DNA of 64,000 nt from a virus. The notes beneath the pieces are model-generated. The model ran no database searches. It was not told the origin of the DNA and worked only from the letters and a program-made list of their open reading frames with translations. Location of the stretch: the IMG/VR virus record IMGVR_UViG_3300045988_095964. One strand, written 5' to 3'. Numbering within the stretch: the first letter of the stretch is position 1; each line of letters begins with the position of its first letter. The position numbers and the translations under genes are program-made. Positions 4,117 through 60,570 of this stretch are shown one piece after another.

Positions 4117-5756
4117 GAAAATCCATAAAGGAGGAAGGCTTCGTATTTGAAACCAAAGGAAAGAGTGCCGAAAGTATCGACACCTCAAGCGTTGAGGGTA
4201 AGACGGTCTCTTTCGACGCGCATTTCATTACGAACCGTATCATGGAGTTCGGTAAGATTCTTACCGGCATACCTCTGTATGAATATCAGGAAGCCATTGC
4301 GTATCGGATCATTTACTCGGTAATCACTTTCGAGGGTAGCGTTCTAACCGTCCTGCTGTCCCGTCAGTCGGGTAAGTCCGAGACAATGGCTTTTGTCATT
4401 GATACCCTAACCGTCCTGCTTCCGGCGCTTGCTAAAGTACTGCCGGAACTGGAACAGTTCTCCACTGGTTTCCGTGTTGGACTGTTTGCGCCGCAATCGG
4501 ATCAGGTTGTAACGACTTATTCGCGTGCTATGACAAGACTTAATTCGGCCAATGCCGAGATGATTCTCTCTGACCCGGATATTTCGGTATCTATGGAAAG
4601 TAACGTGCGCTTGTCACTGAGTAACGGATCGTTCTTGGCCGGACAAGTCGCCAGTAAGCAATCCAAGATCGAATCCAAGACGTATGACCTTGTAATATGT
4701 GAGGAGGCACAGGATATTGACGACTTTATCGTTCAGAAGTCTATCGAGCCTATGCTTTCGGCTACCGGTGGTACACTGCTTAAAGTAGGAACTACCGGTA
4801 TGACCAAGAACCACTTTTGGTATGAGATTCAGGCGAACCGTAACCATGACCGCCGATTGAAAGACCCACGGTTACGGAATCACTTCGAGTACGCATATAA
4901 GGAGATCATCGCCGCCCGTCGTGAACAGTATGAAAAAGACGGTAAGAAATTCCACCTCAACTATGAAGCGGACGTGCTTCGTAAAAAGGAACGTTGGGGA
5001 GAAGATTCCCAAGCGTTCAAACTTGCGTATGCGTTACAGTGGGATTTGGAGAGCGGTATGCTTATTACCGATAAGGAGTTCAACAATCTGCTGAACCGGA
5101 AACTCGGTTATCAGGACCCCGATATTCGTGATTTTATCGTTGCCGGCCTCGATATTGGTAAGTCTCCTGCGGAGACGGTTCTTACGATTGGCCGTGTATG
5201 GTACGGGGATGACCCGTTCGAAAAACCCTATAAACAGATACTCGCATGGGTATGTTTAGGAGGTCTCGACTACGAAGCCCAACACCATGAAATTCTCAAC
5301 TATATTGTAGAATACAACATTTCTACTATATTTGCAGACTATACGGGTGTTGGTAAAGCTGTCGTTGACAGATTGATTTATGCCTGCGGCGAACATGTCA
5401 ATATCGAACCGTATACGTTTACGGCGCAGAGTAAATCTGACATGTGGTTTAATTTTATCTCGGACATTCAAACCAAGCGTATTATTGTGCCTGCGAACAA
5501 ACAAGTGCGAGGTACGATGGAGTTCCAAAAGTTCGAGGAGCAAATGAAGAACTGTCAGAAGTATTTCAACGGCCCGTACATGGTTTGTGAAAAATCGGAC
5601 GGCTACTTTGATGACATGGTAGACAGTTGTGCGTTGATGTGTTTGGCGGCTAACTCCGACCGGCAGGTTGACAATGAAATGGAAGTTACCGATAATCCGC
5701 TGTACGATGGAATTACTGCGACTATCGGCGCAATAAGGAGAAACTCTTACACTTAG
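4107..5756 (+). CDS. terL: terminase large subunit
   Basis: 549 aa. Walker A-like 'SRQSGKSE' and Walker B 'DLVICEEAQDI'. C-terminal nuclease-sized domain. Lies immediately upstream of the portal gene. Confidence 0.9.
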   Translation: MPVRKSIKEEGFVFETKGKSAESIDTSSVEGKTVSFDAHFITNRIMEFGKILTGIPLYEYQEAIAYRIIYSVITFEGSVLTVLLSRQSGKSETMAFVIDTLTVLLPALAKVLPELEQFSTGFRVGLFAPQSDQVVTTYSRAMTRLNSANAEMILSDPDISVSMESNVRLSLSNGSFLAGQVASKQSKIESKTYDLVICEEAQDIDDFIVQKSIEPMLSATGGTLLKVGTTGMTKNHFWYEIQANRNHDRRLKDPRLRNHFEYAYKEIIAARREQYEKDGKKFHLNYEADVLRKKERWGEDSQAFKLAYALQWDLESGMLITDKEFNNLLNRKLGYQDPDIRDFIVAGLDIGKSPAETVLTIGRVWYGDDPFEKPYKQILAWVCLGGLDYEAQHHEILNYIVEYNISTIFADYTGVGKAVVDRLIYACGEHVNIEPYTFTAQSKSDMWFNFISDIQTKRIIVPANKQVRGTMEFQKFEEQMKNCQKYFNGPYMVCEKSDGYFDDMVDSCALMCLAANSDRQVDNEMEVTDNPLYDGITATIGAIRRNSYT

Positions 5757-28534: not shown

Positions 28535-29245
28535 ATGGTCTCGGCAACACACGAAGCTATGAGTGAATATATTGGTTTGGAGTTTAGTGAACGCTTAACT
28601 CAATCGGAAGACAAATTCGCTTTATCAGGGTCTCCCTTTCATGGTGAACAAATGCTATCGGTTTCGGTCGAAACTCTTAACCGGCATTGGTACGGACATC
28701 TCGCTGGTTACGTTAACCGGCTTAACTCCCGGATTGACGAGGTGAATAAGTTGGGTGTTCGTGTGATAGAGGAATCTCTGATTTTTGCTGACTACACGTT
28801 GCAGAACTTAATGCAGTCGCGTGACGTGTGGGTACGCAATTACGCTTCGGGTGTGTATAATCATTTATTCTATTTCGAGGCACTCAATAAAGATTCTTTA
28901 TTACCGGATGAGTTCCGCGCTTTACTCGAAAAACATTTCGGCGACACCGAAAAAATGCAGGAAGCGTTTATGGCACAAGTCCGCATCAATATCGGTTCGG
29001 GCTATGTTTGGATGATGCACAATGATCAGCGTGGTGTACATTTTAAGTGGACCCCTAACCTGCTCAATCCTTTATGGGAGGACATCCCTCCTACGTGGAG
29101 AGGGAAACCACTGTGGTGTGTTGACCTGTGGGAACACGCATGGTATTTGGATCACCTTACGCTGGATTCTTACGTCAATAAAATTTGGGACACTGTTAAC
29201 TGGGAAGTAGTAACCGAACGCGCCAAGAAATATGGATTATTGTAG
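28535..29245 (+). CDS. Fe/Mn superoxide dismutase homologue
   Basis: 'NRHWYGHLAGYVNRLN', 'GVYNHLFYF', 'GSGYVWM' and 'DLWEHAWYLDH...VNWEVVTER'. The positions of all four metal ligands appear conserved. Confidence 0.75.
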   Translation: MVSATHEAMSEYIGLEFSERLTQSEDKFALSGSPFHGEQMLSVSVETLNRHWYGHLAGYVNRLNSRIDEVNKLGVRVIEESLIFADYTLQNLMQSRDVWVRNYASGVYNHLFYFEALNKDSLLPDEFRALLEKHFGDTEKMQEAFMAQVRINIGSGYVWMMHNDQRGVHFKWTPNLLNPLWEDIPPTWRGKPLWCVDLWEHAWYLDHLTLDSYVNKIWDTVNWEVVTERAKKYGLL

Positions 29246-32220: not shown

Positions 32221-32268
32221 AAAATTAGGTATTTGGAACTTTCAAAATTAATTCTTATATTTGTTTTA
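32221..32268 (+). promoter_or_regulatory. conserved promoter cassette, copy 2
   Basis: 'AAAATTAGGTATTTGGAACTTTCAAAATTAATTCTTATATTTG'. TTTG at 32232-32235, a 20-nt spacer, then TATATTTG at 32256-32263. Confidence 0.75.
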
Positions 32269-35043: not shown

Positions 35044-35666
35044 TGGACAAGAAACGACAATATCTTTTGGACTGCGGTATCAAGTGCGCATGGCATGACA
35101 AAACCGTAGACGAATTTACCAATGATGCCGATGCGCTGGATGCAGTTGTTCGTTATATCGAGAGAGCTGATGAAATGATCCGTAAGGGTGTCGGTCTGTA
35201 CTTATGGGGAGCCAACGGTACAGGAAAGTCCCACCTTATGAATACGGCGTTCATTACTTTCATCGAGAGGAAATATCGGTGTCGGGTGTTTTCTATGGAT
35301 GACATCGTTAGTCACGTTACGGCGACATGGTATTCCGATGAACAGCGTGACGCTTTTCAGAACATGCTTTGCCGAGTGGATTTCTTGGGTATTGACGAGT
35401 TCGGTAAGAATGTCGATGCTGACGGGAATCCCTTACCGTTGCCGGATTTGGTGAAACGTGTGATCGAGAGTGTCCTGCGGTATCGTGTTCAGATGAACAA
35501 ACCTGTATGGATCACGTCCAACACCGACCCTAAGAACGTGCGAAAGGTGTTCTCCGAGGATGTCGGTTCCCTGCTCAATGAAGCGGTTATTTCGGTATTG
35601 GTTCGAGGTAACGATTACCGAAAAACCGTTATTCAGAAACGCTTAAAGAATTTGCTCTATGACTGA
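35043..35666 (+). CDS. DnaC/IstB-like AAA+ helicase loader
   Basis: Walker A 'GANGTGKSHL' and Walker B 'DFLGIDEFG'. Confidence 0.75.
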   Translation: MDKKRQYLLDCGIKCAWHDKTVDEFTNDADALDAVVRYIERADEMIRKGVGLYLWGANGTGKSHLMNTAFITFIERKYRCRVFSMDDIVSHVTATWYSDEQRDAFQNMLCRVDFLGIDEFGKNVDADGNPLPLPDLVKRVIESVLRYRVQMNKPVWITSNTDPKNVRKVFSEDVGSLLNEAVISVLVRGNDYRKTVIQKRLKNLLYD

Positions 35667-37971
35667 TGGTGAAAAGCTGTTGTTATCGGTGGTCAAGCGG
35701 GGGGATTTGAAAGTCCTCTCGCAGATCAACCGGAGGTGGTTGGATGGTTCCGAGGTGGTTCAACATCGGTTTATTCTCGACTACTATAAGGAGAGCGGTG
35801 AGTTCATCGGTGTTAAGGCGTACTGTGACAAATTCGACGTGGATATTTCCTCGGTTGATGCCCGACCTGCCTACTACCTGCAACAAGTCCGCAAACGGTT
35901 TATTTTCGCCCGTATTTCCGAAGAAGTGCCTAAAGTGGTCCGCGGTCTTAAAGCGGACCCTCTCGAAAAACTCCAAGACCTGCGCGAATTGGTTTCCTCC
36001 CTTACCAACGACGGGATGGAGACCAAGGATTCCCTGTACTCCGACGATACCGACAAACGTAAGCGAATGTATGAAGATCGTGTGCGCACAAAGGGTGTCA
36101 CGTATCTGAGTATGGGAGAACCCGATCTGGACAGTACTTTGTACGGTTATCGGGAGACCGACCTTATCACTATCGGTGGACGCGCTGGTTTAGGTAAATG
36201 TCTTGGTAAAGGCACTCCTATTCTTATGGCCGATCTTTCGGTTAAGAATGTCGAAGACATCGTGGTTGGTGATAAACTTATGGGTCCCGACGGAACTCCT
36301 CGAACAGTATTGTCCTTGGCGCGTGGTCGTGAACAGATGTATTGGGTTCGTCAAGTCAAAGGTATGGACTATCGTGTCAACAAAAGTCACATACTGTCTT
36401 TGGCTGTTCCCAAAGTTTACTCACGGCGAAGAACCGTAGACGGTAAACGTGTGTACTTGGGGAGAGAAACTTCGTGGGTTACTGAGAATGTCTCCATTAC
36501 CGAGTATTACAGGCGCTCCGCTAAATTTCGAAAAGAGGCTAAGGGGTACAAAGCTCCTCGTATGACCTTTTCTGAGAGTGAGGTACCCTTTGATCCCTAC
36601 TTTTTGGGTGTATGGCTTGGAGATGGTACCTCTCGTGAACTTACGGTGACCTCTTACGATTTACCAATTATAAGGTTCCTGCATAAGTACTCCATCTCTA
36701 TGGGAAAGTATTTGCAGAATGTCGATACTGGATTGTATCGGTTTAAGAATTGTAAAACGCTTGCTCGTAAGATGCGGGAGTTGAATCTTCTCAAAACAAG
36801 GGGTTCTTCGAATCCGGGATTCAAACATATCCCCAAGGAGTTTATCTTTACTTCTGTTGAGAATCGTCTCAGATTATTGGCCGGTCTTGTCGATACTGAC
36901 GGGTACACCACTGATAACTGTATCGAAATAACTCAAAAGAGTGACGCGCTCGCAGATGACATTATGCTGTTGTGTCGAACCTTGGGATTCTATGTCTCGC
37001 ATAATCTCAAGTACGTGGACGGAACTCCCTATCACCGAATGGTTATACAAGGTGACGGGGTTGAGGATATTCCGGTTCGTATTACCCGAAAGAAATGTAC
37101 TCCGCGTAAGCAGGTTAAAAATGTCTTGCACACTGGAATCGTGGTTGAGAAAGACGTGGTTGATGACTACTATGGGTTTACCATAGACGGGGATCATCTG
37201 TTCTGTCTCGCGGATTTTACGGTTACGCATAACACGTGGCTGATCGTTCACCTTGCGAGGAAGCTCAACGAGGTGGTGCTCAAATTACGCAGTGAGGGAA
37301 TGTCCGTCGGCGACATTCTTTTCGTATCGAATGAGATCGGGGAGGATGAACTGAAAGAACGTTTCGACTGTATTAATTTCCGCCTGCCTTATGAGCGGTT
37401 CCAAAAAGGTGAACTCACCGAAAGGGAGAAAAGTCGCTACTATCATGGTCTGGACGAACTCAAAGACGCTCCGTCGGCGCTTCGAATCATTTACAGTTGC
37501 GAAACTATCGACGAGCTGACTACCAATATCGGACTGTATAATCCGTGCGTGATATTCGTGGATGGTTCTTATCTTATGGAGCCGTCTATCCCGGAGGGTT
37601 GGGAGAAGATCACGCATATTACCCGAAATCTGAAACGATTGTCCAAGAACAACAAAGTGCCTATCATCAACACTACCCAGCTCCGCAGGGGTACTGGTAA
37701 GGGGGGATCGCGCGATGCGCTTTCCGGTCAGGATGACTTTGCTTATTCGGGTTCTTATGTGCAGGATTCCGATATTGCTATCCGTATGTTCCAAGATGCG
37801 GACATGAAATTTTACGATCAAATCGGTTGCGAGATCGTTAAGGGTCGTCGTGTCTCACCCGGAACACTGTTTTTGTTCCAAAATAATTTGGAGAAAATGG
37901 ATGTGTCCGTAAAACTTTCCCCTAAAGATGCTGAAACCGAACCTACCTCCACAAGACCGGAAGTCTTTTAA
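35659..37971 (+). CDS. dnaB: DnaB-family replicative helicase, interrupted by an intein
   Basis: The exteins give 'GGRAGLGK|T' (Walker A restored after splicing), 'IFVDGSYLM' and 'IINTTQLRRG'. Confidence 0.85.
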   Translation: MTDGEKLLLSVVKRGDLKVLSQINRRWLDGSEVVQHRFILDYYKESGEFIGVKAYCDKFDVDISSVDARPAYYLQQVRKRFIFARISEEVPKVVRGLKADPLEKLQDLRELVSSLTNDGMETKDSLYSDDTDKRKRMYEDRVRTKGVTYLSMGEPDLDSTLYGYRETDLITIGGRAGLGKCLGKGTPILMADLSVKNVEDIVVGDKLMGPDGTPRTVLSLARGREQMYWVRQVKGMDYRVNKSHILSLAVPKVYSRRRTVDGKRVYLGRETSWVTENVSITEYYRRSAKFRKEAKGYKAPRMTFSESEVPFDPYFLGVWLGDGTSRELTVTSYDLPIIRFLHKYSISMGKYLQNVDTGLYRFKNCKTLARKMRELNLLKTRGSSNPGFKHIPKEFIFTSVENRLRLLAGLVDTDGYTTDNCIEITQKSDALADDIMLLCRTLGFYVSHNLKYVDGTPYHRMVIQGDGVEDIPVRITRKKCTPRKQVKNVLHTGIVVEKDVVDDYYGFTIDGDHLFCLADFTVTHNTWLIVHLARKLNEVVLKLRSEGMSVGDILFVSNEIGEDELKERFDCINFRLPYERFQKGELTEREKSRYYHGLDELKDAPSALRIIYSCETIDELTTNIGLYNPCVIFVDGSYLMEPSIPEGWEKITHITRNLKRLSKNNKVPIINTTQLRRGTGKGGSRDALSGQDDFAYSGSYVQDSDIAIRMFQDADMKFYDQIGCEIVKGRRVSPGTLFLFQNNLEKMDVSVKLSPKDAETEPTSTRPEVF
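36199..37233 (+). mobile_element. intein (345 aa) with LAGLIDADG homing endonuclease, in the DnaB P-loop
   Basis: Starts 'CLGKGTPILM' and ends 'FTVTHN' with +1 Thr. LAGLIDADG motifs 'FLGVWLGDGT' and 'LLAGLVDTDGY'. Confidence 0.85.
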
Positions 37972-39034: not shown

Positions 39035-40903
39035 ATGGACCTCTTGGATGTTCTCAAAGATTTCGAACCTACACGTATGGCCAACGGTCAGATACGGTGT
39101 ATGTGTCCGTTTCGAGAGAACCATACTGACGGCAGTGGTCGGATGTCATTTTTCCTTAATCCCGAAATCGGAGCCTATCATTGTTTCGCCGGGGAAACTC
39201 GTGTTCCTACCAGTGAAGGTACCTTTTCGATAAAAGATTTATCCGGGAGAACCGTTAAGGTTCTTACTTCGAATGGTACTTTTGTGGATGCCTCTTTTAA
39301 GGAATATGGGAAACAACTTCTTTGGGAGATACATCTTACAAAGGATGGTCTTTCCAAGATTATTCGTGCCACAAGCGGTCATAGATGGTTTGTTAAAGGT
39401 GTAAAGTCAACTTTAACAACTTCAGAACTTAAAGTGGGTCATTATTTACAGTCCGTAGATTTTGCCCATGTTCAAGAGACCGAGCAGTCTTACGCTGGTA
39501 TCAGGCATGGAATTGTCTTTGGGGATGGAACTACTGATCGAAGTCGAAAGCGTATTAAAACTTTGGTTAATCTTCATGGACACAAGATGGAGTTGGCTTC
39601 TTACTTTAGTGCCACTGAGAATCGTGGTGTTAAAGTAAGAGGTACTGGTGAACGGTACATCCGTATTTATGATGTACGTGGCGGAGGTTCTTTCAAAGAG
39701 TTGCCTTTGTTATCCGCTGATCTTTCATATCTTCGTGGGTTTTTGGCTGGATACATCGCCACGGATGGTTGTATAACTGAGAAAGGAATACTGATACTTA
39801 ATTCCAGTCGTGCCGAAGACTTGGAGTTTTGTAGGCAAGCCTTTTTTAAGCTGGGTGTTTCAACAAGTTCGATACAAAGTCAATTCCGGAAGGGGTACTC
39901 TAAAGACGGTTCTCTTGTTCATAAGATGACTATTAATACTAAGAATCTCGACGCTTCTTTTTTCCTCCGGTCAGACCAAAGAGAACGGTTTATGTCCTTT
40001 CACAAGAAGTACACTCGAAATCGCTATCGGGTAACAGGCGTTATTTTTACTGGGATTCTTTCGACGGTCTATTGTGCTGAGGTACCTATTTATCATTGTT
40101 TTGCTCTCGAAGACAACATCCTTACAGGTAATTGCTTTTCATGCGGGGCTAAGGGGAGTGCCATCCGGTTACTGACGCGGGAGTTGGGCGTCAATTACTT
40201 CGATGCGGTAGAGCTGGTCAATTTGTCCGGTATTCTCGAAAGTAAGAAAGCCAAGTCGGAATTCGACCTCGACATTGTGTGGAAGATGCAACCCCCGACG
40301 TATTTCCTTAGTCGTGGGTACAAGCCATCTACGTTGCGACACTTCAAACTCGGAGAAACACTCGATGGTTGGATGATTATTCCGTTTTACTGGGAGGATT
40401 CTCTGAAAGGGTATCAACGCCGTAAACAAATTCCGGACCGTATTGTGCAGAATAATCCCGGATTCAATAAAAAGGAGTATCTGTACAACTACGATACGAG
40501 CTTTGACTACGTGATAGTAGTCGAGGGGTATTCGGATGTCATGCGGTTGTATGAACACGGGTACAATGCTACCGCTGTTCTCGGTGCTGATCTCAGTTCG
40601 TGGCAGGTGGAGAAAATATCCAAGTTTTCAACGGTATTTCTGGCATTCGATAATGACGAAGCTGGTAGACGTGCTACTGAAATAGCCTATCGGTTGATAA
40701 GTCCGCATACGGATGTCCGGTTAATTCCGTACACAACCAAGGACCCCGGTGAATGCCGTCGCCGCGGTGTGTGGAAACGATGCTTCGAAGCCGCTACGGA
40801 TTATGCCGAGTACTCAACTTATATGGCCATGTACATTGATGGTTATATAGAGATGCGCGATAAAGTGTGGAGGGAATTAAAACGAAGAAACGATGCTGTT
40901 TAG
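39035..40903 (+). CDS. dnaG: DnaG-type primase, interrupted by an intein
   Basis: The CHC2 zinc finger 'CPFRENH...YH|CFSCGAKG' is restored after splicing. TOPRIM motifs 'VVVEGYSDV' and 'FDNDEAGRRA'. Confidence 0.85.
   Translation: MDLLDVLKDFEPTRMANGQIRCMCPFRENHTDGSGRMSFFLNPEIGAYHCFAGETRVPTSEGTFSIKDLSGRTVKVLTSNGTFVDASFKEYGKQLLWEIHLTKDGLSKIIRATSGHRWFVKGVKSTLTTSELKVGHYLQSVDFAHVQETEQSYAGIRHGIVFGDGTTDRSRKRIKTLVNLHGHKMELASYFSATENRGVKVRGTGERYIRIYDVRGGGSFKELPLLSADLSYLRGFLAGYIATDGCITEKGILILNSSRAEDLEFCRQAFFKLGVSTSSIQSQFRKGYSKDGSLVHKMTINTKNLDASFFLRSDQRERFMSFHKKYTRNRYRVTGVIFTGILSTVYCAEVPIYHCFALEDNILTGNCFSCGAKGSAIRLLTRELGVNYFDAVELVNLSGILESKKAKSEFDLDIVWKMQPPTYFLSRGYKPSTLRHFKLGETLDGWMIIPFYWEDSLKGYQRRKQIPDRIVQNNPGFNKKEYLYNYDTSFDYVIVVEGYSDVMRLYEHGYNATAVLGADLSSWQVEKISKFSTVFLAFDNDEAGRRATEIAYRLISPHTDVRLIPYTTKDPGECRRRGVWKRCFEAATDYAEYSTYMAMYIDGYIEMRDKVWRELKRRNDAV
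39182..40132 (+). mobile_element. intein (317 aa) with LAGLIDADG homing endonuclease, in the primase zinc finger
   Basis: Starts 'CFAGETRV'. Block G-like 'VYCAEVPIYHCFALEDNILTGN' with +1 Cys. LAGLIDADG motifs 'GIVFGDGT' and 'FLAGYIATDGC'. Confidence 0.8.
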
Positions 40904-48413: not shown

Positions 48414-49607
48414 ATGAAGTACTATTTTGTAAAAACCCTTGTAGACAAGGGACGCACTCGTGTTCGTGCATTATCCAAACAAACCCATGATGACGGAACC
48501 CCCGTTGACACTACGGTTAACGTTAAAGTAGACCGGGATATTCGTTCTGAATATCCTACGGGAACCATCTACGGAGTTACCTCGCTTATTCCCAAAGCGG
48601 GTTACCTCGATGTCGAGGACGGTAAGATGTACCCGATGAATGTTCCCCGGTTTATCAGCGACGATCACCGTCCTACTGAGGAGATGGTTGCCGCGTACCG
48701 TGACTTTATCGGGGTTATGGAGGAACCCGAAACGGTTGACAAAGATACCTCCGCCCGGAGTTACCTCGGTCGGTTGATGAAGAACGAACGGTTCAACCCT
48801 CCGACCATCAAAAACGACGGGTTCTTCACGGACAAGTCAAAATGGTACTTGCTTATCCGAAACATTCAGAATCAGGTTAACACCATGCTTCTCGGTCCTA
48901 CTGGAACAGGTAAAACCGAACTGGTAATGCTCGCATGTCAGAAACTCGGTGTGGAATGCTCCGTTTACGACATGGGGTCCATGTACGACCCGGTTTCCGG
49001 GCTTCTCGGTGTTCACCGATTGCAGGAGGGCGGCATATCGGTGTTCGATTATGCCAAATTCACGCAGGACATTCAGAAACCCGGTGTGGTGTTGCTCGAC
49101 GAGCTTTCCCGCGCCCCCGTAACAACTAATAACATTCTTTTCCCGTGCTTGGACTCGCGCCGTTCGTTGCCTGTCGAAATTGCCGGGGGTAAGGATATGC
49201 GTGCTATTCGCGTGCATCCGGAGTGCTGTTTCATTGCAACAGCGAATATCGGTGCTGAGTACACGGGTACCATGATTATGGACCGTGCACTGATGAACCG
49301 CTTTTTTGCGATGAAGCTCTCCTATTTGGCACAAACCGACGAGGTTCAGCTTCTCGTAAAACGATGCGACATTAAGCCCGACCATGCCCGCAAGATTTCT
49401 CTTGTGTGCTCGGAGATTCGCACCACGTTCGACAAGGGCGAACTCAGTCACGCCATGTCTACCCGTGAATCCCTTATGGCGGCTGAACTTATCCGGGATG
49501 GTTGGTCTCCCTTGGAGGCTATGGAGTTGTCGTTCCTGCCGCTGTACGAGGGAACTGATTCCGAGGGTGAACGCGGTATCGTTCGCAAACTTATAATGAG
49601 CCGGTAG
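48414..49607 (+). CDS. MoxR/CobS-like AAA+ ATPase
   Basis: Walker A 'LLGPTGTGKTEL' and Walker B 'VVLLDELSRAP'. Confidence 0.85.
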   Translation: MKYYFVKTLVDKGRTRVRALSKQTHDDGTPVDTTVNVKVDRDIRSEYPTGTIYGVTSLIPKAGYLDVEDGKMYPMNVPRFISDDHRPTEEMVAAYRDFIGVMEEPETVDKDTSARSYLGRLMKNERFNPPTIKNDGFFTDKSKWYLLIRNIQNQVNTMLLGPTGTGKTELVMLACQKLGVECSVYDMGSMYDPVSGLLGVHRLQEGGISVFDYAKFTQDIQKPGVVLLDELSRAPVTTNNILFPCLDSRRSLPVEIAGGKDMRAIRVHPECCFIATANIGAEYTGTMIMDRALMNRFFAMKLSYLAQTDEVQLLVKRCDIKPDHARKISLVCSEIRTTFDKGELSHAMSTRESLMAAELIRDGWSPLEAMELSFLPLYEGTDSEGERGIVRKLIMSR

Positions 49608-49608
49608 T

Positions 49609-51474
49609 ATGGAACGCCCGTTTATGACCCGTGCAGAGATCGAGGATTTGATGCGCGATTGGTTTGATCGTGACGGCGAAACGTTCATTCGGATCAGTGA
49701 CAAAGACCGTGTTGGTTGGGAGGACACTCTCGACGCCGGGGCCGACTACTCAACGTACATTCTGGAATCTCCTACGCAGGAGGATTTGATTCGCCGCGGT
49801 TATACGTTGGCTTCTGAAATGCTGACGGCTATGAACCTCCCCCGAAAGGTTCGCCTGCGTATTTCTCGTACTGGAGACAGTGCTACCGACTTAAAGACGG
49901 TTACTGTTTGTACCGAGTATTTCGATGACAAGACGCTGACCGTGGGTGCCAAACTCGATATTTTTATGGGACTTACCATTCACGAGGGATGTCACGTTCT
50001 CTATACCACTCCGACTAAACCCGAAGATTTCGGTGTCAACAAGCGGATCATCCATACCTTGTGGAACATCATAGAGGACGAACGTATCGAGGAGAAACTT
50101 GGTGAGACGAAACCCGGTTTCGCCCGGTTCTTGGAGAAGTCCCGGTACTACTATTTCGACCAGTACTATCTGGACGCTGGTATGATCGACGAAGTGGCCG
50201 AAAAGACTGATGCCGAGCAGTTGCTCAACCTTATTCTCAGAATTATCCGTTATCCGGTATATCTGAAAGAGGAAGACTTCGAACGGTTCGGTTTCTATCT
50301 GAAAAAGATTAAGGAGATACTCCTGCCGTTCCCCGATTCTACGAAAGCCGCTCTCGACGCCGCCAGACGCATTTACGAGGTTATCCGCGATTTCTACCGT
50401 GATAAAGAAACCGCTGACAGTAAAGAAGCCAGTTATGGGGAGGGTGATACTGATGCCGAAGGAATGGGTTCTTCTTGTGGTGACGAGGAACTCGACCGTA
50501 AGATTGCTTCTGATGCTTCTGAAATGCTGGAGGGTTTGTCCAAACTTACCGGCTCTGAAACCGCTGACAGTAAAGAAGCCAAAACTCTCGGCGATGACGA
50601 TATGGCCACAACGGTTAAGGACAAGGGAGGTTTGCTCGGTGAAATTTGTGAGGGTCTCGTCGAACTCGGTTCCGGCACCGATACCTATTTTACTCCGGCT
50701 CCGTCCGATGCGTCACGATACGAGAAATCTCACCAGCGGGTTCGTCGGTATGTTCCCGCTATCTCCAAAATTATTCGAGGACACTGCCGGGAGTACAAGT
50801 TAATCCATCGCAGTATGCGGAGTGGCGTTCTCGATACGAACAAACTTGCCGAGGCCATTCAAGGTGTAAGCACGGTCTACATTCGTGAGGGTGAAGTGAA
50901 AAGTGATCGCGTCGCCGTGTGTGTTCTGATCGACGAAAGTGGCTCCATGAGTGGTGAACGAATTGAGGCCGCACGGGACACTGCCGTTCTCCTTAACGAA
51001 GCGGTCGGTAGTATTCCGCAAGTAGAGCTGTTCATTTATGGTCATACGGGAGACATTCGTACCAGTCGGTCCACGGAATTACATGTTTACCGAGAGAAAG
51101 GCTACTCTCCGAAATATGCGCTCGGTTCCGTGAGAGCGTGCTGTGAGAACCGTGATGGTATTGCTATTTACGAAGTCGCTCAACGGGTACGCAAACAAAC
51201 CCAGCTTCCCGTGTTGTTCTTTATTCTTTCCGATGGTGCGCCGTGCGCGGGAAGCTATCACGGTGAATCCGCTATGAACCACGTTCGGGAGATGGTGAAC
51301 AAGGTAGAAGCGATGCAGTTTAACGTTGTGCAGGTGTGCATTAACCATAGTTATCCACCCGAAAGAATGTTTAAGCATTTCGTCATTCTCGAAGACCTTT
51401 CCACGTTAGCTATCTCACTGGGTCGCGTAATTAAAAAGGCGACCATGAAAAACACTGCAAGCAGAGTTATCTGA
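49609..51474 (+). CDS. vWA-domain protein (CobT-like) with N-terminal HExxH motif
   Basis: 'LTIHEGCHVLY' (49981-49995) and 'WNIIEDERIE'. MIDAS motif 'VLIDESGSMSG'. Confidence 0.8.
   Translation: MERPFMTRAEIEDLMRDWFDRDGETFIRISDKDRVGWEDTLDAGADYSTYILESPTQEDLIRRGYTLASEMLTAMNLPRKVRLRISRTGDSATDLKTVTVCTEYFDDKTLTVGAKLDIFMGLTIHEGCHVLYTTPTKPEDFGVNKRIIHTLWNIIEDERIEEKLGETKPGFARFLEKSRYYYFDQYYLDAGMIDEVAEKTDAEQLLNLILRIIRYPVYLKEEDFERFGFYLKKIKEILLPFPDSTKAALDAARRIYEVIRDFYRDKETADSKEASYGEGDTDAEGMGSSCGDEELDRKIASDASEMLEGLSKLTGSETADSKEAKTLGDDDMATTVKDKGGLLGEICEGLVELGSGTDTYFTPAPSDASRYEKSHQRVRRYVPAISKIIRGHCREYKLIHRSMRSGVLDTNKLAEAIQGVSTVYIREGEVKSDRVAVCVLIDESGSMSGERIEAARDTAVLLNEAVGSIPQVELFIYGHTGDIRTSRSTELHVYREKGYSPKYALGSVRACCENRDGIAIYEVAQRVRKQTQLPVLFFILSDGAPCAGSYHGESAMNHVREMVNKVEAMQFNVVQVCINHSYPPERMFKHFVILEDLSTLAISLGRVIKKATMKNTASRVI
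50407..50431 (+). repeat. 25-bp perfect direct repeat, copy 1 (copy 2 at 50557..50581)
   Basis: GAAACCGCTGACAGTAAAGAAGCCA occurs twice, 150 bp apart, encoding 'ETADSKEA' in the acidic linker. Confidence 0.9.
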
Positions 51475-51580: not shown

Positions 51581-51654
51581 GGTCCCGTAGCTCAGTTGGA
51601 TAGAGCATCAGATTTCTAATCTGAGGGTCGCGCGTTCGAACCGCGCCGGGATCA
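51581..51654 (+). tRNA. tRNA-Arg (anticodon UCU)
   Basis: Cloverleaf by hand. Acceptor GGTCCCG/CGGGATC, D arm GCTC..GAGC, anticodon stem TCAGA/TCTGA with loop TTTCTAA, and T arm GCGCG-TTCGAAC-CGCGC. No encoded CCA. Confidence 0.9.
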
Positions 51655-51671
51655 CAAATCTATAATAAGTA

Positions 51672-55002: not shown

Positions 55003-56028
55003 ATGCCGCACAAGAAAATTTCTACGGGGCTATTGAAGCGCAAACGTGTTTCCAAAGAACTGGTTCGACGAAACAATGTCGTTGTTACCAAGCCAACCTC
55101 CAAAACTTGCTGGGTTCCTATACCTAATTATGAGGGTATCTATGAAATCTCTGATAGTGGAAAGATACGTTCTGTGGAAAGAGATGTTGAGTACACTACT
55201 GGAAAAACTTGTCATTTACGTAGCCAATTATTAAGACCATCTATTGATAAAGATGGTTATTTAATAACACATCTTTATCGTGGGAATAAGACTGAAACTT
55301 ACAAGGTTCATCGTTTAGTAGCAACAGCCTTTATCCCTAATCCTAATGGGTACCCCGATGTAAATCATAAAGACGAGGATAAATCGAATAACGTAGTGTC
55401 TAATTTAGAGTGGTGTACTCGAAGATACAATGTTACTTATGGTAGTCGAGCCGACAAAGCGTCTGAAAAATTAACCAGATTTTTATATCAACGTTTTTCT
55501 TTGTCCGGAGAGTACATAGATACTCTTTCCCACAAAGAGCTTAAAAGTATGGGGTTCAATTTGGGTACTATATGGAGGTGTTCTATTGGTAAAGCAAATG
55601 TGTCCTCTGGGTTTCGATGGCATCGTATTCCTGTTGAGGATGCTCCTAAATTTAGGAATCCTCGTATTCGTAACGATGGCTCTGTGATTAATAGAGCAAC
55701 ATCTTCCGGAACGTGGAAAAGTTTCGAGCGAGTAGTCGCTAAATTTTTCGGGACCAAACGTGTTCCGTTATCCGGTAGTAACAGTGGACATAATACCAAT
55801 AGCGATTCCCTGCATCCTACATTGTATATTGAGTGTAAGGTTCGTCAGAAGTCCGCTGTATGGTCGTTGTTCAAAGATACCGAAGTAAAGGCCAAGTTCG
55901 AAAAGAAGATTCCGGTTGTCGCCATCAAACAAAAAGGCGAACAAGGCTACCTACTGGTTATCCGACCCGAAGATTTGGGTAAAATTCATACGATACAACA
56001 ATCTGTAACAGAAGCCGATGGGGTATAA
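55003..56028 (+). CDS. HNH homing endonuclease (NUMOD4 + HNH + NUMOD1-like) fused to a PD-(D/E)XK domain
   Basis: 'IPNYEGIYEISDSGKIRS', 'HRLVATAFIPNPNGYPDVNHKDEDKSNNVVSNLEW' and 'GFRWHRI'. The C-terminal 'SFERVVAKFFGTKRVPLSGSNSG..SDS..YIECK' is paralogous to the 47964 ORF. Confidence 0.85.
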   Translation: MPHKKISTGLLKRKRVSKELVRRNNVVVTKPTSKTCWVPIPNYEGIYEISDSGKIRSVERDVEYTTGKTCHLRSQLLRPSIDKDGYLITHLYRGNKTETYKVHRLVATAFIPNPNGYPDVNHKDEDKSNNVVSNLEWCTRRYNVTYGSRADKASEKLTRFLYQRFSLSGEYIDTLSHKELKSMGFNLGTIWRCSIGKANVSSGFRWHRIPVEDAPKFRNPRIRNDGSVINRATSSGTWKSFERVVAKFFGTKRVPLSGSNSGHNTNSDSLHPTLYIECKVRQKSAVWSLFKDTEVKAKFEKKIPVVAIKQKGEQGYLLVIRPEDLGKIHTIQQSVTEADGV

Positions 56029-56064
56029 CTCCGTGAGTGTCGGAGAAAATAACCTTTCCGATCT

Positions 56065-56095
56065 CTTGGAGTATTCGAGAAATTACCTATTTTTG
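56065..56095 (+). promoter_or_regulatory. Bacteroides-type promoter (-7 TATTTTTG)
   Basis: CTTG at 56065-56068, a 19-nt spacer, then TATTTTTG at 56088-56095. Confidence 0.45.
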
Positions 56096-56159
56096 TAGAG
56101 TTCAAAGTTACTTGGTAGTAGCGCAGGTTAACTGGTCGAAAACCTTTATCGGAGTATCT

Positions 56160-56444
56160 ATGGAAATTAACACGGAATCAAACACTGTAACTTTAAGGTG
56201 CAAATCATCGACCGACGCGAACAAACTTGCTGGAAGTATTCATTCTGCATTTCAGAATGACCCTGCCAAAAAGATACTGATTCGTGTTATCGGTGCAGGC
56301 GCACTCAACCAAGCGACGAAAGCCTGTATTTTGGCAAACAAGTTCTTTGCAAAGAAAGGAATCATCCTCGCTCTGCAACCCTCGTTCCAAACTATCGGCG
56401 AAATCACTGCGATTGAGCTAAAGGTTCTGTTTCTCAAAAATTAG
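56160..56444 (+). CDS. SpoVS-like (Alba-superfamily) protein
   Basis: 'LIRVIGAGALNQATKACILANKFFAKKG...ITAIELKV' matches the SpoVS signature 'IGAGA.NQA.KA.AIA'. Confidence 0.75.
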   Translation: MEINTESNTVTLRCKSSTDANKLAGSIHSAFQNDPAKKILIRVIGAGALNQATKACILANKFFAKKGIILALQPSFQTIGEITAIELKVLFLKN

Positions 56445-56452
56445 TCCTGCTT

Positions 56453-56483
56453 TTTGGAGATTCAGAATTTTTATCTACATTTG
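56453..56483 (+). promoter_or_regulatory. Bacteroides-type promoter (-33 TTTG, -7 TACATTTG)
   Basis: TTTG at 56453-56456, a 19-nt spacer, then TACATTTG at 56476-56483. Confidence 0.6.
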
Positions 56484-56556: not shown

Positions 56557-56682
56557 ATGGCAAGAACCGCAAGAACCGCCGCTACCGGAAGGGGCCGTGG
56601 TCGTGCCGCCGCCGCTCCCGCGCGTGGTGGTCGTAGAAGTGGAGGCCGTGGCCGTGCCGCCGCTACCGCTTCGAAGTCGTAA
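56557..56682 (+). CDS. Arg/Gly/Ala-rich 41-aa basic micro-protein
   Basis: 'MARTARTAATGRGRGRAAAAPARGGRRSGGRGRAAATASKS'. Bracketed by its own promoter and terminator. Locally GC-rich. Confidence 0.5.
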   Translation: MARTARTAATGRGRGRAAAAPARGGRRSGGRGRAAATASKS

Positions 56683-56701: not shown

Positions 56702-56737
56702 GAGGACCTACCGATTCGTTGGCAGGTCCTCTCTTTT
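56702..56737 (+). terminator. rho-independent terminator
   Basis: GAGGACCTACC / GGCAGGTCCTC stem (one mismatch), 8-nt loop, then TCTTTT. Confidence 0.65.
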
Positions 56738-56750
56738 AATAGGCATAAGT

Positions 56751-57479
56751 ATGGAAAAGAAGATTTTATTGTTTTCAGGTGGTTTTGATTCCATGTTGCA
56801 GGAGTGGTTGATTCGTCCGGATTTGCTCCTGTACGTAGATATGAAAACCTCCTACGCCGAACGCGAGATCGAAGCTCTCAAACGTTTACCTCCTTATTAC
56901 GTAGATCGGTTAAAGGTGATCGAGTTCCCTCTTGGTGAATACGAACGGGAGAACAAATACCTGCCCTACCGGAATCTTATTTTGGGGACGCTTGCCATGC
57001 AGTATGGGCAACACGTTTATTTCGGTTTCAACGAAGCTGACAACGCTCCCGATAAGGACGACGTATTTATTCGCAGACTGACTACTTTGTTCCGGCATCT
57101 GAACAAACACTGCATCGGCGACATGGGGTGGGAGAACACGCATTTCAGTTTCTCGGCGCCGTACAAACACCTAACCAAAACCGAGATGGTGGCGGAGTGT
57201 CTGAAACAAGGTATGCCCGTTGACTGGATTCAGAAAATCCGGTCCTGCTATGATTCTGCAAGTGAGATCGGTTGCGGTGTTTGCCGTCCGTGTCTTAACC
57301 GAGGGATCGCGTTAATCAATAACGGGATTTACGAACCGGAGTTGTTCGATACGCCTATCGACGAGGTTCGGTTGTGGAATCTTATGAAAGAAACCGCTTC
57401 CTACGACGGTGGCGATTATTCTGCGAAATACTATGCCGACATTAAAAAGGCGCACCGATTATTACGACAAAGAGGTTAA
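56751..57479 (+). CDS. queC: 7-cyano-7-deazaguanine synthase-like PP-loop ATPase
   Basis: 'KILLFSGGFDS', 'LPYRNLIL', 'FSAPY..LTKTEM' and 'SCYDSASEIGCGVCRPCLNR'. Confidence 0.8.
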   Translation: MEKKILLFSGGFDSMLQEWLIRPDLLLYVDMKTSYAEREIEALKRLPPYYVDRLKVIEFPLGEYERENKYLPYRNLILGTLAMQYGQHVYFGFNEADNAPDKDDVFIRRLTTLFRHLNKHCIGDMGWENTHFSFSAPYKHLTKTEMVAECLKQGMPVDWIQKIRSCYDSASEIGCGVCRPCLNRGIALINNGIYEPELFDTPIDEVRLWNLMKETASYDGGDYSAKYYADIKKAHRLLRQRG

Positions 57480-58371
57480 TCGAGCGGTTCTTTTTTTCTC
57501 CGCTTCCTCTACCGGCGACACTGAACAGTTGTTAGAGTTCGGTATTCGAGAGATTCTTGTGTCTTACTTCTATATGCGCAAGAGTTTACCGTATTACGAT
57601 GGAGTACTCGACAAACTGCACAAGGAGAAAGGTCTTTTTATGACGGACTCCGGGGCGTTCTCTTTTATGGCGTCCGGTGTCATCAAAGATGAGATGTATA
57701 CTGAAAAGTATTGGTTGCCTTACTTGGAGGAGTACGTTGACTGGCTGTGGAAGCATAAGGATAAAATCTTTGTCGCCGCGAATCTCGATCTGGACAAAAT
57801 TGTGGGTCGTGAAGTGGTCGATAAATGGAACCGAAAGTATTTCGAACCTCTCGAAAAGGCTGGTTTGCAGATCGTTTATGTGGCGCACGAAAACGACACT
57901 GACGATAAGCACGCTATAAAACATTTTGGACAGTACTGTAAACGATATAAGTATGTCGGGATTAACCAGTCTCAGAAAGAGTACGCTTCACATTTTTATC
58001 AAATGGCCAAGCATCATAATGTCCGTGTACACGGTTTTGCTTGGACTGAGATGAATATTGTAAAGCACTACCCATTCTTTTCTCTGGACTCTACGACGTG
58101 GCTTGGAGGTGTTCGGTATGGAACCACTTATGACTACGACGGTAAGAATTTTCGCACCATCGACTACAAGCATAAGTACATAAGAAAATCCCGGCGTTTG
58201 AAATATCGAAAAATTGGCGTATCTTTGGATGACGTTCTTGGTGAAGAAAAACGAAAACCGATTAACCGCATGAACTTGCTCGGTTGGATGGGCTTCCGTA
58301 AAGAGTTTCTCCGCATGGCGAATCTTAAACTCCACAACAGAACTGTTGCACACTATACACGAAAACCATGA
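57433..58371 (+). CDS. dpdA: DpdA-like DNA-guanine transglycosylase (TGT superfamily)
   Basis: 'REILVSYFY' and 'LFMTDSGAFSF'. Lies between queC and queE. The start is uncertain (GTG 57409 or ATG 57433). Confidence 0.6.
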   Translation: MPTLKRRTDYYDKEVNRAVLFFSASSTGDTEQLLEFGIREILVSYFYMRKSLPYYDGVLDKLHKEKGLFMTDSGAFSFMASGVIKDEMYTEKYWLPYLEEYVDWLWKHKDKIFVAANLDLDKIVGREVVDKWNRKYFEPLEKAGLQIVYVAHENDTDDKHAIKHFGQYCKRYKYVGINQSQKEYASHFYQMAKHHNVRVHGFAWTEMNIVKHYPFFSLDSTTWLGGVRYGTTYDYDGKNFRTIDYKHKYIRKSRRLKYRKIGVSLDDVLGEEKRKPINRMNLLGWMGFRKEFLRMANLKLHNRTVAHYTRKP

Positions 58372-59120
58372 GCGAAGACGTAACAAAAAAGCGTATTGCC
58401 GAAATTCGTGAGGCCGGTGAAGACTTTGACAAACTCAGAAAATGTCTTTGTCCGTTCTTTCAGAAAGGTGATTGCCCCGACTGTATCAGTTGCTTATGCG
58501 AGGATGACGATGTTCTCGAATGTAAGAAGTACTTTTTGGAACACATCAAAATCCATCCTATGGATGTTTGGTCTCCGGAGTTTGACGTCGTTAAGGTTCA
58601 ATCCCGTGAGAAAGTTTCCATTAACGAGACCATCGGTATCGGAATTAACTGTGACACTTGTTACATGTATGACAAGTGCCCTTTATACAAGATGGGGTAT
58701 GCTTGCGGGATCGACTGGGGTGACGGAAGACCCTCCACTCCCGAAGCATACTACGAGTTCTTGGTAAACACTCAGTATGAGCGTGTTAAGCGTGCATCGG
58801 TGTTTGAGAAAATCGACGGAGGTGTTCCCGACGCTAACCTTTCCGGTGAAATGGATCGGTTGTCCGGTTATATTCTCAGTCGGTTGGATTTGAACCGGGA
58901 ACGTCTGTCGGTGAATATCGAAGCTACTGGTTCGGCTTCCGGTAGTAGTGGCGGTGGTGGTATACTGGCCAAGTTATTCGGTGGCGGTGTGAGTGCTCCC
59001 GCAACGAAAGAGATTCCTGCCGAAACCGAAACCCGTAAGGATTTGATTACTGAGGCCGAAGTAGTAACTGAACCTGTAAAGGTTCCAAGACGACGAAGAA
59101 ATGTCGGTGACAGTGAGTAA
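58368..59120 (+). CDS. Cys-rich hypothetical protein in the deazaguanine operon
   Basis: ATGA coupling to dpdA. Cys clusters 'CLCPFFQKGDCPDCISCLCEDDDVLEC' and 'CDTCYMYDKCPLYKMGYAC'. Confidence 0.55.
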   Translation: MSEDVTKKRIAEIREAGEDFDKLRKCLCPFFQKGDCPDCISCLCEDDDVLECKKYFLEHIKIHPMDVWSPEFDVVKVQSREKVSINETIGIGINCDTCYMYDKCPLYKMGYACGIDWGDGRPSTPEAYYEFLVNTQYERVKRASVFEKIDGGVPDANLSGEMDRLSGYILSRLDLNRERLSVNIEATGSASGSSGGGGILAKLFGGGVSAPATKEIPAETETRKDLITEAEVVTEPVKVPRRRRNVGDSE

Positions 59121-59421
59121 ACATTTGCGAAAGGGTAAGAACAAGGTTTCTGCCGTGCGCCGTCACTACCGGAAAGGTAGTACCCATAAGACGGTTAAAG
59201 GCCGAAAGTACGTTTTCGTTGATGGCTTCTGGAAACACGACGATTACCCGAATGCTCCCAAAGCAGGTTGGTCTTATGAGCATCTTGTAAGGGAGCGTGC
59301 AAAATTACTCAATGACCTGCAAGACGGTCTTGAGAATCGTGATATTTTACCCCCGCGCAAATATGGGTTACTATCACGACGTATTCGTAAGATAAACCGA
59401 ATACTTAAAAATAAAAAGTAA
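59101..59421 (+). CDS. basic-hairpin-motif protein
   Basis: N-terminus 'VSKHLRKGKNKVSAVRRHYRKGS'. Confidence 0.5.
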   Translation: MSVTVSKHLRKGKNKVSAVRRHYRKGSTHKTVKGRKYVFVDGFWKHDDYPNAPKAGWSYEHLVRERAKLLNDLQDGLENRDILPPRKYGLLSRRIRKINRILKNKK

Positions 59422-59870
59422 TGGATGCGTTATTGAAATCATTAGTAGGTGCTCACATCGAGTATCGGAGCAGGACATCCGGTGAGGATTCCGCTTCGTG
59501 GGAGCGCGTACTCCGTAGCGAACGTAAGAAAATACAGGAGACCATCGAGATCGCCGAGCAATCCAGCACCACAGCTAAAATCATGCTGTACGTGGAGATG
59601 CTTAACTACTACCGGAATCAACCGTTCTACATGATGATCCGGAGCAGTATCGTACTGGGTCGAGTTAGGCCGCAGGTAATAAAATTACTATCGCGCCTTA
59701 ACTCTACGGAAAGGTGTTTCATGTTATCCGAAGCATTGAACAAGGGTCCCAAAGACCCCGACCGAAAGACATACGTAGCTACTGCTTCGTTTATGCTCCG
59801 GACTTACGAGAGACACCTGCCCGCATTACGGAAATTTCTGACCTCGGAAGAACTTTTAACTTGTGTGTAG
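59421..59870 (+). CDS. hypothetical helical protein in the deazaguanine operon
   Basis: TAATG coupling. 149 aa. Confidence 0.5.
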   Translation: MDALLKSLVGAHIEYRSRTSGEDSASWERVLRSERKKIQETIEIAEQSSTTAKIMLYVEMLNYYRNQPFYMMIRSSIVLGRVRPQVIKLLSRLNSTERCFMLSEALNKGPKDPDRKTYVATASFMLRTYERHLPALRKFLTSEELLTCV

Positions 59871-59871
59871 T

Positions 59872-60570
59872 ATGTACAGAGTCAACACCATTTACCCCGC
59901 ATTTATGGGGGAACAAAACAAATTCGGCATTGGCCGTAGATGTGTGTTCGTTCGTTTCAGTGGATGTAATATCCGCTGTTACGAAAAAACTATGGGCATC
60001 ACTTGTGACACTCCCGAAGCCTTGTGCGGAAAGAGTGGTGTTGGTATGAGTACTGCCGAGATCGTCGATACACTTCGGGAATATAACATTCGGACTATCT
60101 GCCTAACTGGTGGGGAGCCGCTTATGCAAAATCCCGTTGAACTACTGGAGGAGCTTAGTCGAGAAGGTTACAGTGTGGTTGTAGAGACCAACGGAACCAT
60201 CTCGGTGGCTCCTTTTGTGCATATACGCAATGTCAGCTTCGTTGTTGACTACAAGGCGCCGAGTGCCGGGGTAAGGTCTTTCGAGTTGGACAACTTTAAG
60301 TATCTGCGTCGGGACGATTACCTCAAATTCGTCATTTACGACGACGAAGATTACGAGGATATGAAGCGTATCTGCGATATGATGAAAGGAAAAGTAAATC
60401 TTGTTGCCGGCTTATTTTGGGGAGCGAAAATAGGCTACGTCGAACTCACTAACCGTATCTTGCGCGACAGATTACCGCTGAACCTCAATATGCAGGTTCA
60501 CAAGATGATGGTACTCTATGACGAGTACCCGGAGGCAGTCAGAACATTGAATGTCCCCAAAGAGTTGTAA
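59872..60570 (+). CDS. queE: 7-carboxy-7-deazaguanine synthase (radical SAM)
   Basis: 'RRCVFVRFSGCNIRCY', 'CDTPEA' and 'CLTGGEPL'. Confidence 0.85.
   Translation: MYRVNTIYPAFMGEQNKFGIGRRCVFVRFSGCNIRCYEKTMGITCDTPEALCGKSGVGMSTAEIVDTLREYNIRTICLTGGEPLMQNPVELLEELSREGYSVVVETNGTISVAPFVHIRNVSFVVDYKAPSAGVRSFELDNFKYLRRDDYLKFVIYDDEDYEDMKRICDMMKGKVNLVAGLFWGAKIGYVELTNRILRDRLPLNLNMQVHKMMVLYDEYPEAVRTLNVPKEL

Follow-up and report, generated by a model that had tools for sequence, protein, structure and literature searches.

Record IMGVR_UViG_3300045988_095964 of the IMG/VR virus collection comprises 64,000 nucleotides (nt) of DNA, a stretch that is called the window here, at its full length. Six closely packed open reading frames (ORFs) in this window form a cluster that probably represents the core of a phage system for modification of DNA with 7-deazaguanine. 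The first is a queC-like gene (56751-57479), coding for a divergent PP-loop enzyme that is predicted to be a 7-cyano-7-deazaguanine synthase. It is followed by dpdA (57433-58371), whose product is a predicted TIM-barrel DNA guanine transglycosylase of 9g/DpdA1-like type and the putative catalytic subunit of the system, and by ORF3 (58368-59120), whose separate product is homologous to the C-terminal module of long DpdA proteins and has in front of this part an extra helical N-terminal domain with four cysteines (Cys4). ORF4 (59101-59421) encodes a very basic protein of 106 amino acids (aa) with isoelectric point (pI) 10.8, and ORF5 (59421-59870) a fast-evolving protein of 149 aa whose gene keeps its position. 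The last member is a queE-like gene (59872-60570) for a radical-SAM enzyme, predicted to be a 7-carboxy-7-deazaguanine synthase. A queD gene for a predicted 6-carboxytetrahydropterin synthase is unlinked to the cluster; it is located at 3577-4116 and adjoins a large ORF (4107-5756). All these genes, as every gene in the window, are on the + strand.

Neighbouring genes of the cluster overlap or nearly touch: the queC-like gene and dpdA have 47 nt in common, dpdA and ORF3 meet in an ATGA at 58368-58371, ORF3 and ORF4 overlap by 20 nt, ORF4 and ORF5 share 1 nt in a TAATG at 59419-59423, and a gap of 1 nt (59870/59872) separates ORF5 from the queE-like gene. Translational coupling within the operon is suggested by these overlaps. 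Coordinates and junctions were re-read from the sequence and agree with those given in a preliminary description of this DNA, and the peptide motifs which it quoted for QueC, DpdA and QueE are all present in the translations. Because dozens of contigs from related phages contain homologues of each of the six ORFs in unchanged order, these are real genes and not chance reading frames. The order queC-dpdA-ORF3-(ORF4)-ORF5-queE is kept in about 50 loci of the clade to which the window belongs. The start of the queC-like gene is placed at 56751, and not at an upstream TTG, because its homologues begin with MEKK(I/V)LLFSGG.

The ORF at 57433, regarded in the preliminary description as TGT/DpdA-like, does fall within this superfamily. 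An alignment of the clade's DpdA sequences matches the DpdAs of Nonagvirus ChristophMerian, Vid5, Cracklewink and phiFN37 with 99.7% probability (hhalign; E = 3.4e-25 over 181 columns), with the motifs DSGAFS, VHGF and P(F/W)xSxDS(S/T)xW aligned to each other. The product also matches phrog_887 (6.8e-35, positions 5-228). About 100 phage records were matched by tblastn, many of them annotated as DpdA or as queuine tRNA-ribosyltransferase/TGT, and the nearest relative outside the clade belongs to Bacillus phage BCD7 (32% identity, E = 1e-30). The AF2 model of the protein (pLDDT 91.7, pTM 0.89) has the alternating strands and helices of a (beta/alpha)8 TIM barrel. Comparison of this model with BFVD by Foldseek returned 32 matches at E<=1e-3; about 8 of them bear the name queuine tRNA-ribosyltransferase or TGT, the majority of the rest are viral proteins that are unnamed or uncharacterized, and the closest include models of phage DpdAs. 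The ORF has no match to Pfam TGT and none in NCBIfam. The Pfam miss is uninformative, because DpdAs of the 9g type miss Pfam TGT too; the link to TGT therefore rests on literature.

Four residues of the barrel, D72 (in DSG), D119, H200 and D219 (in DS), are invariant in 42 clade sequences, and S220 is conserved as well. In the alignment with the DpdA1 set, D72 and D219 fall on D72 and D215, which are invariant there. In bacterial DpdA, three aspartates have been assigned to general acid/base catalysis (D95), base recognition (D130) and nucleophilic attack (D256) (PMC10164549). By analogy with this enzyme and with TGT, D72 and D219 may be the catalytic pair, in which D72 would serve in general acid/base catalysis and D219 would be the covalent nucleophile. 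H200 (VHGFAWT) aligns with His196 of the 9g DpdA (VHGFGIT), a residue that marks DpdA1 and is absent from DpdA2 (PMC6884629), and the protein is therefore DpdA1-like.

The dpdA gene of the window is uninterrupted by an intein, which is present in 8 of 51 clade loci: L001 (4073-6271 of MT835482.1), L015, L017, L018, L020, L021, L030 and L054. It is a class 1 intein of 424 aa with a LAGLIDADG endonuclease (in L001, PF14890 2.6e-23 and LAGLIDADG_3 7.2e-9), and near-identical phages carry an intein-free allele. The DpdA of L001 reads FFSSDS/SVGYD...VVVHN/TTWLGG, with slashes at the intein borders, and so has the Ser1, the C-terminal His-Asn and the Thr+1 of its class. The intein sits between S220 and T221, just past the predicted nucleophile D219, a position consistent with functional constraint on this site. 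A literature search turned up no published DpdA or TGT with an intein.

Homologues of enzymes of the preQ0 pathway accompany the transglycosylase. The QueC-like protein matches Pfam QueC (1.9e-15; 57.4 bits against a cut-off of 22) and phrog_1550 (2.2e-19). Its LLFSGGFDS motif (SGGxDS) and a zinc motif C-x8-C-x2-C-x2-C (C166/C175/C178/C181) are invariant in the clade, and a clade profile, which includes two QueCs of canonical type, matches the solved QueC structures 2PG3 (5.5e-31) and 3BL5 (3.7e-28). For the QueE-like protein the best families are all QueE (TIGR04349 1.2e-36, TIGR03963 8.6e-33), with further matches to phrog_2076 (1.2e-26) and to the solved QueE 4NJG (9e-7). The distant ORF at 3577-4116, taken for QueD in the preliminary description, is confirmed as such by Pfam PTPS (1.1e-26; 93.6 bits against a cut-off of 22.4) and by a CxxxHGH motif (KCFNLHGH). 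Its neighbour at 4107-5756 had been called a terminase; the Pfam scan of that group of ORFs found no terminase family.

The preliminary description had noted no folE, no queF and no Gat-QueC fusion, and suggested that the rest of the genome be searched for folE. For the window the statement stands: a Pfam scan at E<=1e-3, extended to its 81 remaining candidate ORFs, found no FolE, QueF, ArcS, amidotransferase or methyltransferase domain. For the genome it does not stand with respect to folE. Exact 50-mers from the ends of the window do not occur in IMG/VR, and the remainder of the genome was reached by walking through IMG/VR with protein queries. This led to a sister contig, IMGVR_UViG_3300045988_085590, that is 98-99% identical to the window ends and codes for a GTP cyclohydrolase I (L154 13946-14614; Pfam GTP_cyclohydroI 1.5e-57) about 9.7 kb past the window end. 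A scan of IMG/VR with a single FolE protein missed this contig, and a local tblastn recovered the gene. From the walk the genome is therefore estimated at about 89 kb, similar to Bacteroides phage BS162P1 (88.9 kb), which also encodes FolE. MT835482.1 has no folE; with 72.7 kb against about 89 kb, it is probably not a complete record. The remaining ~23 kb of the sister contig, one 2-kb gap apart, contain no further deazaguanine-pathway domains, and neither the window nor most of the remaining genome yielded queA, queG or a formyltransferase domain. According to the gene-content rule of Hutinet et al. 2019 (PMC6884629), FolE, QueD, QueE and QueC together with DpdA give dPreQ0. Because of this rule and of folE in the near-identical contig, the base, which the preliminary description had considered impossible to name, can be named tentatively as dPreQ0; its remark that the embedded ORFs may alter the base is retained below as a competing explanation.

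Three ORFs of the cluster had been described as unknown, and this remains true for ORF4 and ORF5, which have no Pfam or PHROG family, but not for ORF3. It matches positions 364-494 of phrog_887 (3.8e-14), the same PHROG as DpdA, and its residues ~95-235 align with the C-terminus of Streptomyces phage BRock gp36 (500 aa) and BCD7 gp021 (757 aa). In 34 IMG/VR loci the same module belongs to a single DpdA polypeptide, which has 475-718 aa. Because the ORF3 module corresponds to the C-terminal part of these fused proteins, DpdA is split in the present clade. The signature of the module consists of C-x2-C-(F/Y)-x4-K-C-P-x7/8-C, a helical hairpin Q..RV..E..GGYxDPNLSxE(I/M)DRL, a G-(M/I/L)-(I/L)-x-(R/K)-(L/I)-F-G peptide located in a poorly conserved stretch of low confidence, and an acidic (I/V)DAE(V/I)V tail. 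Eight cysteines of ORF3 are invariant across 34 homologues. Four of these (C28, C39, C42 and C52) belong to the extra N-terminal domain of the stand-alone form, which is modelled as a three-helix unit with pLDDT about 90; the AF2 model as a whole reaches pLDDT 69.6, and its central Cys4 region is of low confidence. Neither sequence search nor Foldseek found a match of ORF3 in the PDB, and a literature search found no characterisation of this module.

In gut members of the clade, the module always has its own gene, which stands directly 3' of dpdA, the junction ranging from a 17-nt overlap to a 49-nt gap; in the distant relative L057 one gene intervenes. Most fused forms have no que genes in their vicinity, and the module is therefore tied to the transglycosylase step and not to base synthesis. 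Short validated DpdAs of the 9g/CAjan type have neither the module nor an adjacent homologue, and none of the small ORFs 3' of the short dpdA genes in Cracklewink, phiFN37 and Vid5, or of the BRock dpdA, is similar to ORF3. The module is therefore accessory and not universal. From these comparisons ORF3 is a probable partner subunit of DpdA.

ORF4 occurs in some subclades, and many others lack it but retain every other gene; by this distribution it is an accessory gene that members of the clade can do without. Nearly all clade loci have ORF5, with 26-47% identity. An exhaustive HMMER search of 1.84 billion proteins returned 39 representative clusters of ORF5, all of them clade members, none longer than 160 aa and none fused to another domain; a word-indexed homologue search returned 4 proteins. 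By these searches ORF5 is a clade-restricted orphan. Its conserved residues are E14, E59, R81 and R98, with otherwise no obviously invariant catalytic constellation. A further small ORF (56557-56682, +), located between the upstream SpoVS-like gene and queC, encodes 41 aa rich in arginine, glycine and alanine (pI 12). This arginine- and glycine-rich (RG-rich) ORF has no PHROG family, but a counterpart of 31-58 aa and similar composition occupies the same place in at least 20 related loci of all major subclades. Sequence and repeat number vary among loci, and the composition is protamine-like. The que/dpdA cluster of BCD7 also holds G/R-rich genes, gp023 and gp024 (phrog_32714).

A preQ0-type pathway together with a DpdA transglycosylase leads to the expectation of 7-deazaguanine in the virion DNA. 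This was the central inference of the preliminary description, and all family tests agree with it. We propose, with a probability of about 0.75, that the core of a phage system for DNA modification with 7-deazaguanine, predicted to produce dPreQ0, lies in this region, and that its DpdA is split, with ORF3 as a subunit. FolE (known from the near-identical contig), QueD, QueE and the divergent QueC would convert GTP to preQ0, and DpdA would swap guanine for preQ0 in double-stranded phage DNA after replication. The product, dPreQ0 at part of the G positions, would shield the genome from host restriction. The split enzyme would consist of the 312-aa barrel and of ORF3 with its Cys4, hairpin and G-[MIL]-[IL]-x-[RK]-[LI]-F-G module and additional Cys4 domain. 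ORF3 would act as a non-catalytic metal-binding subunit (Zn or Fe-S) that aids binding of DNA or of a partner.

DpdA may even be an obligate multi-subunit machine, a proposal that we consider rather unlikely. In such a machine, ORF3 would be the obligate targeting partner, and ORF5, possibly with the RG-rich peptide, would complete the complex or convert preQ0 to an undescribed derivative. ORF3 might then hold an Fe-S cluster, and its G-[MIL]-[IL]-x-[RK]-[LI]-F-G peptide might dock on a replication or clamp-like factor.

Several observations speak against a dPreQ0 system with a split DpdA. For the transglycosylase, the top 50 Foldseek matches in the PDB are generic TIM barrels (E about 2e-3) with no TGT or bacterial DpdA among them, and phmmer and profile searches of the PDB returned noise, again with no TGT or bacterial DpdA. 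The zinc site CXCX2CX22H of TGT and bacterial DpdA is absent from the 312-aa protein, which has one cysteine; the DpdA1 sequences that we examined lack this site likewise. ORF3 would supply two Cys4 sets in trans, a putative counterpart to the TGT zinc site at most. The pathway enzymes are similarly divergent. QueD scores below its NCBIfam cut-off (TIGR03367 1.5e-17; 63.7 against 89.25), and the QueE-like protein stays under the NCBIfam cut-offs and under that of Pfam Radical_SAM (27.8 against 29.5). Its cysteine spacing is CX3CX8C and not the canonical CX3CX2C (or CX14CX2C); CX3CX8C is present in all clade members, and the QueE of BCD7 has CX3CX2C. The QueC-like sequence alone has no match to solved QueC structures. 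It reaches 34.6 bits against an NCBIfam equivalog cut-off of 150, because of which isofunctionality with QueC is not assured. Furthermore, folE comes from a 98-99% identical contig and not from the molecule of the window itself, the sister genome was seen except for about 2 kb, and modification of the virion DNA is itself a prediction from the genes. Finally, the conserved ORF5 and RG-rich ORF are not accounted for.

The divergence of QueC leads to the most serious of the alternative explanations, namely that the same system makes another base. The QueC-like enzyme would stop at the amide (dADG), or DpdA would insert CDG, or ORF3, ORF4 and ORF5 would derivatise the product to dG+, to a member of the dPreQ1 family or to an unknown 7-deazaguanine. 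Three very different QueC-like lineages replace one another within the clade, and the product could therefore be ADG or another derivative. The remoteness of this QueC from canonical ones and the presence of ORF5 between dpdA and queE in nearly all members point in the same direction, and new derivatives have arisen elsewhere through small clade-specific genes beside the cluster (Hutinet et al. 2023). On the other side, QueC retains both its PP-loop and its zinc Cys4 site, ORF4 and ORF5 have no enzyme-like family match, ORF4 is dispensable and ORF5 is devoid of an evident catalytic constellation, and scans of the window and of most of the rest of the genome revealed no domain of QueF, ArcS, glutamine amidotransferase, methyltransferase or formyltransferase. 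We regard a base other than dPreQ0 as unlikely.

It is also conceivable, but in our opinion quite unlikely, that ORF3, ORF4 and ORF5 are unrelated passengers and that DpdA works alone, as do the short DpdAs of 9g and CAjan. These validated enzymes manage with neither the module nor a neighbouring homologue, and ORF4 is clearly dispensable. The module, however, is fused to DpdA in 36 independent cases, some of them in phages with no que genes nearby; as a separate gene it always adjoins dpdA in the gut clade (one gene off in L057), and its motifs are strongly conserved. It is very improbable that the genes act on tRNA queuosine or on the host preQ0/queuine pool as auxiliary metabolism instead of on phage DNA: public pipelines do label them "queuine tRNA-ribosyltransferase" and "queuosine biosynthesis", and Q-precursor genes alone occur in some phages, but the transglycosylase groups with phage DpdAs and has no Pfam TGT match and no TGT among its PDB matches, genetic evidence from CAjan and 9g shows that members of the DpdA family place the base in DNA (PMC6884629), no queF, queA or queG was found in the scanned parts of the genome, and the sole tRNA gene in the window, a tRNA-Arg(TCT) at 51581-51655 (+), does not code for a queuosine substrate.

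Of the known systems, those that yield dPreQ0 in Escherichia phage CAjan and in Rosebush (Mycobacterium) come closest to the proposed split-DpdA system. They have the same enzymes, FolE, QueD, QueE and QueC together with DpdA, with no amidotransferase or QueF (PMC6884629), and their DpdAs likewise contain the His, DSG, HGF and xDSxxW motifs. The present cluster differs in its separate Cys-rich module protein, in unlinked queD and folE, in far more divergent QueC and QueE, in the additional ORF5 and RG-rich ORF, and in a Bacteroides-type host. Catalytic domain and C-terminal module are shared with BCD7 gp021, BRock gp36 and the 34 IMG/VR homologues, and the BCD7 neighbourhood also includes RusA-like, SpoVS and small G/R-rich genes; in BCD7 and BRock the module is within one polypeptide, whereas here it has its own gene and an added N-terminal Cys4 domain. 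Enterobacteria phage 9g and Nonagvirus, which make dG+ by means of Gat-QueC and DpdA, have the DpdA family and the preQ0 genes in common with the window. Archaeosine is not predicted here, because this QueC is devoid of a glutamine-amidotransferase domain, unlike Gat-QueC of 9g.

The bacterial Dpd system (DpdA/DpdB/DpdC, PMC10164549) exchanges G for preQ0 in DNA by a TIM barrel with two catalytic aspartates, as is predicted here. In contrast to it, no DpdB ATPase or DpdC was seen and the catalytic ORF lacks CXCX2CX22H; no similarity is detectable by direct sequence comparison or by Foldseek, and the role would be phage counter-defence instead of host defence. The DpdA3 phages Cellulophaga phiST and Flavobacterium vB_FspM_immuto_2-6A (PMC10516641) share with the present phage 7-deazaguanine DNA and Bacteroidota hosts, both predicted in our case. 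The phiST protein M4SLA5 is a weak structural match to the window DpdA (E = 1.9e-4), which is much closer to the DpdA1-like/BCD7 group than to phiST. Complete replacement of G has been reported for DpdA3 (PMC10516641) and is not implied for the window phage. The distant relative L057 (941-8088 of IMGVR_UViG_3300001336_000024) has a canonical QueC, three ORFs of 213-288 aa and then, in this order, dpdA, queD, an ORF3-like gene and queE. By its gene content, this locus is a candidate for a further-derivatised deazaguanine.

Directly 5' of the cluster lies a SpoVS-like gene (56037-56444, +; Pfam SpoVS 2.4e-13), which is found at this place in all clade loci; a SpoVS gene is also part of the BCD7 cluster. 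Nine nt past its stop codon, at 56453-56483 (+), there is a promoter-like motif of Bacteroides type, TTTG-N19-TAnnTTTG, and in most related loci the motif is kept 6-18 nt past the SpoVS stop. The consensus reportedly goes back to work of Bayley et al. in 2000. The pattern TTTG-N18-22-TAnnTTTG occurs 8 times in the window (3280, 7356, 13925, 30943 on the - strand, 32232, 48343, 56453 and 58197) against 1.06 expected, a number that 0 of 100 shuffles reach; 7 of the 8 matches have the orientation of the coding strand, most of them in gaps between genes, and those at 32232 and 48343 are nearly identical 32-mers. Scans for sigma-70 promoters and terminators gave no excess over shuffles, and the sigma-70 consensus does not apply to Bacteroides. 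The transcription unit probably begins 5' of queC, at the 56453-56483 motif, and takes in the RG-rich ORF; the genes would be transcribed from this promoter and translated off one tightly packed mRNA. A second promoter-like motif (58197-58227, +), within dpdA and 141 nt 5' of ORF3, is kept in the two closest subclades only, and may be an internal promoter or due to chance. Between the RG-rich ORF and queC, a stem-loop (56702-56731, +) is followed by a T-rich run to 56739 that ends 11 nt before the queC start codon. The predicted RNA fold has -20.2 kcal/mol (z = -2.77), and stem-loop and T-run together are possibly a partial terminator or an element of RNA stability. An Rfam search of the window found no riboswitch, for example of the preQ1 type.

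Among cultured phages the closest relative is BS162P1, a Bacteroides phage that was isolated on B. salyersiae from sewage. Its DpdA is 62% identical, the gene order is the same, and all its cluster genes are annotated "hypothetical". Another relative from phage databases, MT835482, comes from human faeces. The host is probably Bacteroides, and the enrichment of the promoter motif supports a host among Bacteroidota. Hundreds of homologues are found in metagenomic assemblies, on contigs of 80-90 kb, and one ORF3 allele occurs in 451 blocks of a public-assembly index. A literature search found no connection between deazaguanine and Bacteroides or gut phages of this type. The cluster appears to be a system of known kind in a clade that is both new and abundant; it is distinguished by its split DpdA, its uncharacterised conserved partners and its divergent Que enzymes. 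So far 7-deazaguanine DNA has been shown mainly in phages of Proteobacteria, Actinobacteria, Firmicutes, marine Bacteroidota and archaea, and human-gut Bacteroides, which this clade appears to infect, would be a new host group. If the DNA is modified, sensitivity to restriction and CRISPR, sequencing, cloning and host-range prediction would be affected for common gut phages. The split enzyme offers the conserved C-terminal module of DpdA as a separable protein, and its role is therefore directly testable.

Homing elements are found in several other genes of the window. A RusA-like resolvase gene (55003-56028, +) has an in-frame insertion of ~185 aa with an HNH module (NUMOD4 + HNH_3), bordered by a duplicated peptide of ~16 aa. 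An uninterrupted gene of 140 aa is present in the near-identical L012 and L013, while L014, BS162P1 and L045 have the insertion, which is therefore a polymorphic mobile element in coding sequence. A DnaB-like helicase (35659-37971, +) contains an intein (Hom_end_hint 1.2e-23, LAGLIDADG_3, Hom_end), and a primase with Toprim and a CHC2 zinc finger (39035-40903, +) has LAGLIDADG_3 at residues 232-305. Judging from these domains, the genome is rich in homing elements.

Among the remaining genes, a Fe/Mn superoxide dismutase (28535-29245, +; Sod_Fe_C 4.8e-20, Sod_Fe_N 1.7e-6) is unusual for a phage of an anaerobe. A MoxR-type AAA+ ATPase (AAA_5, CbbQ_C; 48414-49607) and a CobT-like VWA protein (49609-51474), both on the + strand, form a pair that is kept 5' of the cluster in relatives. 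The sister contig (L154, L098) also codes for a Tad2-like Thoeris anti-defence domain (2e-15) and for ferritin-like, DUF3109 and HD-domain proteins, which by their domains would be further counter-defence and auxiliary genes.

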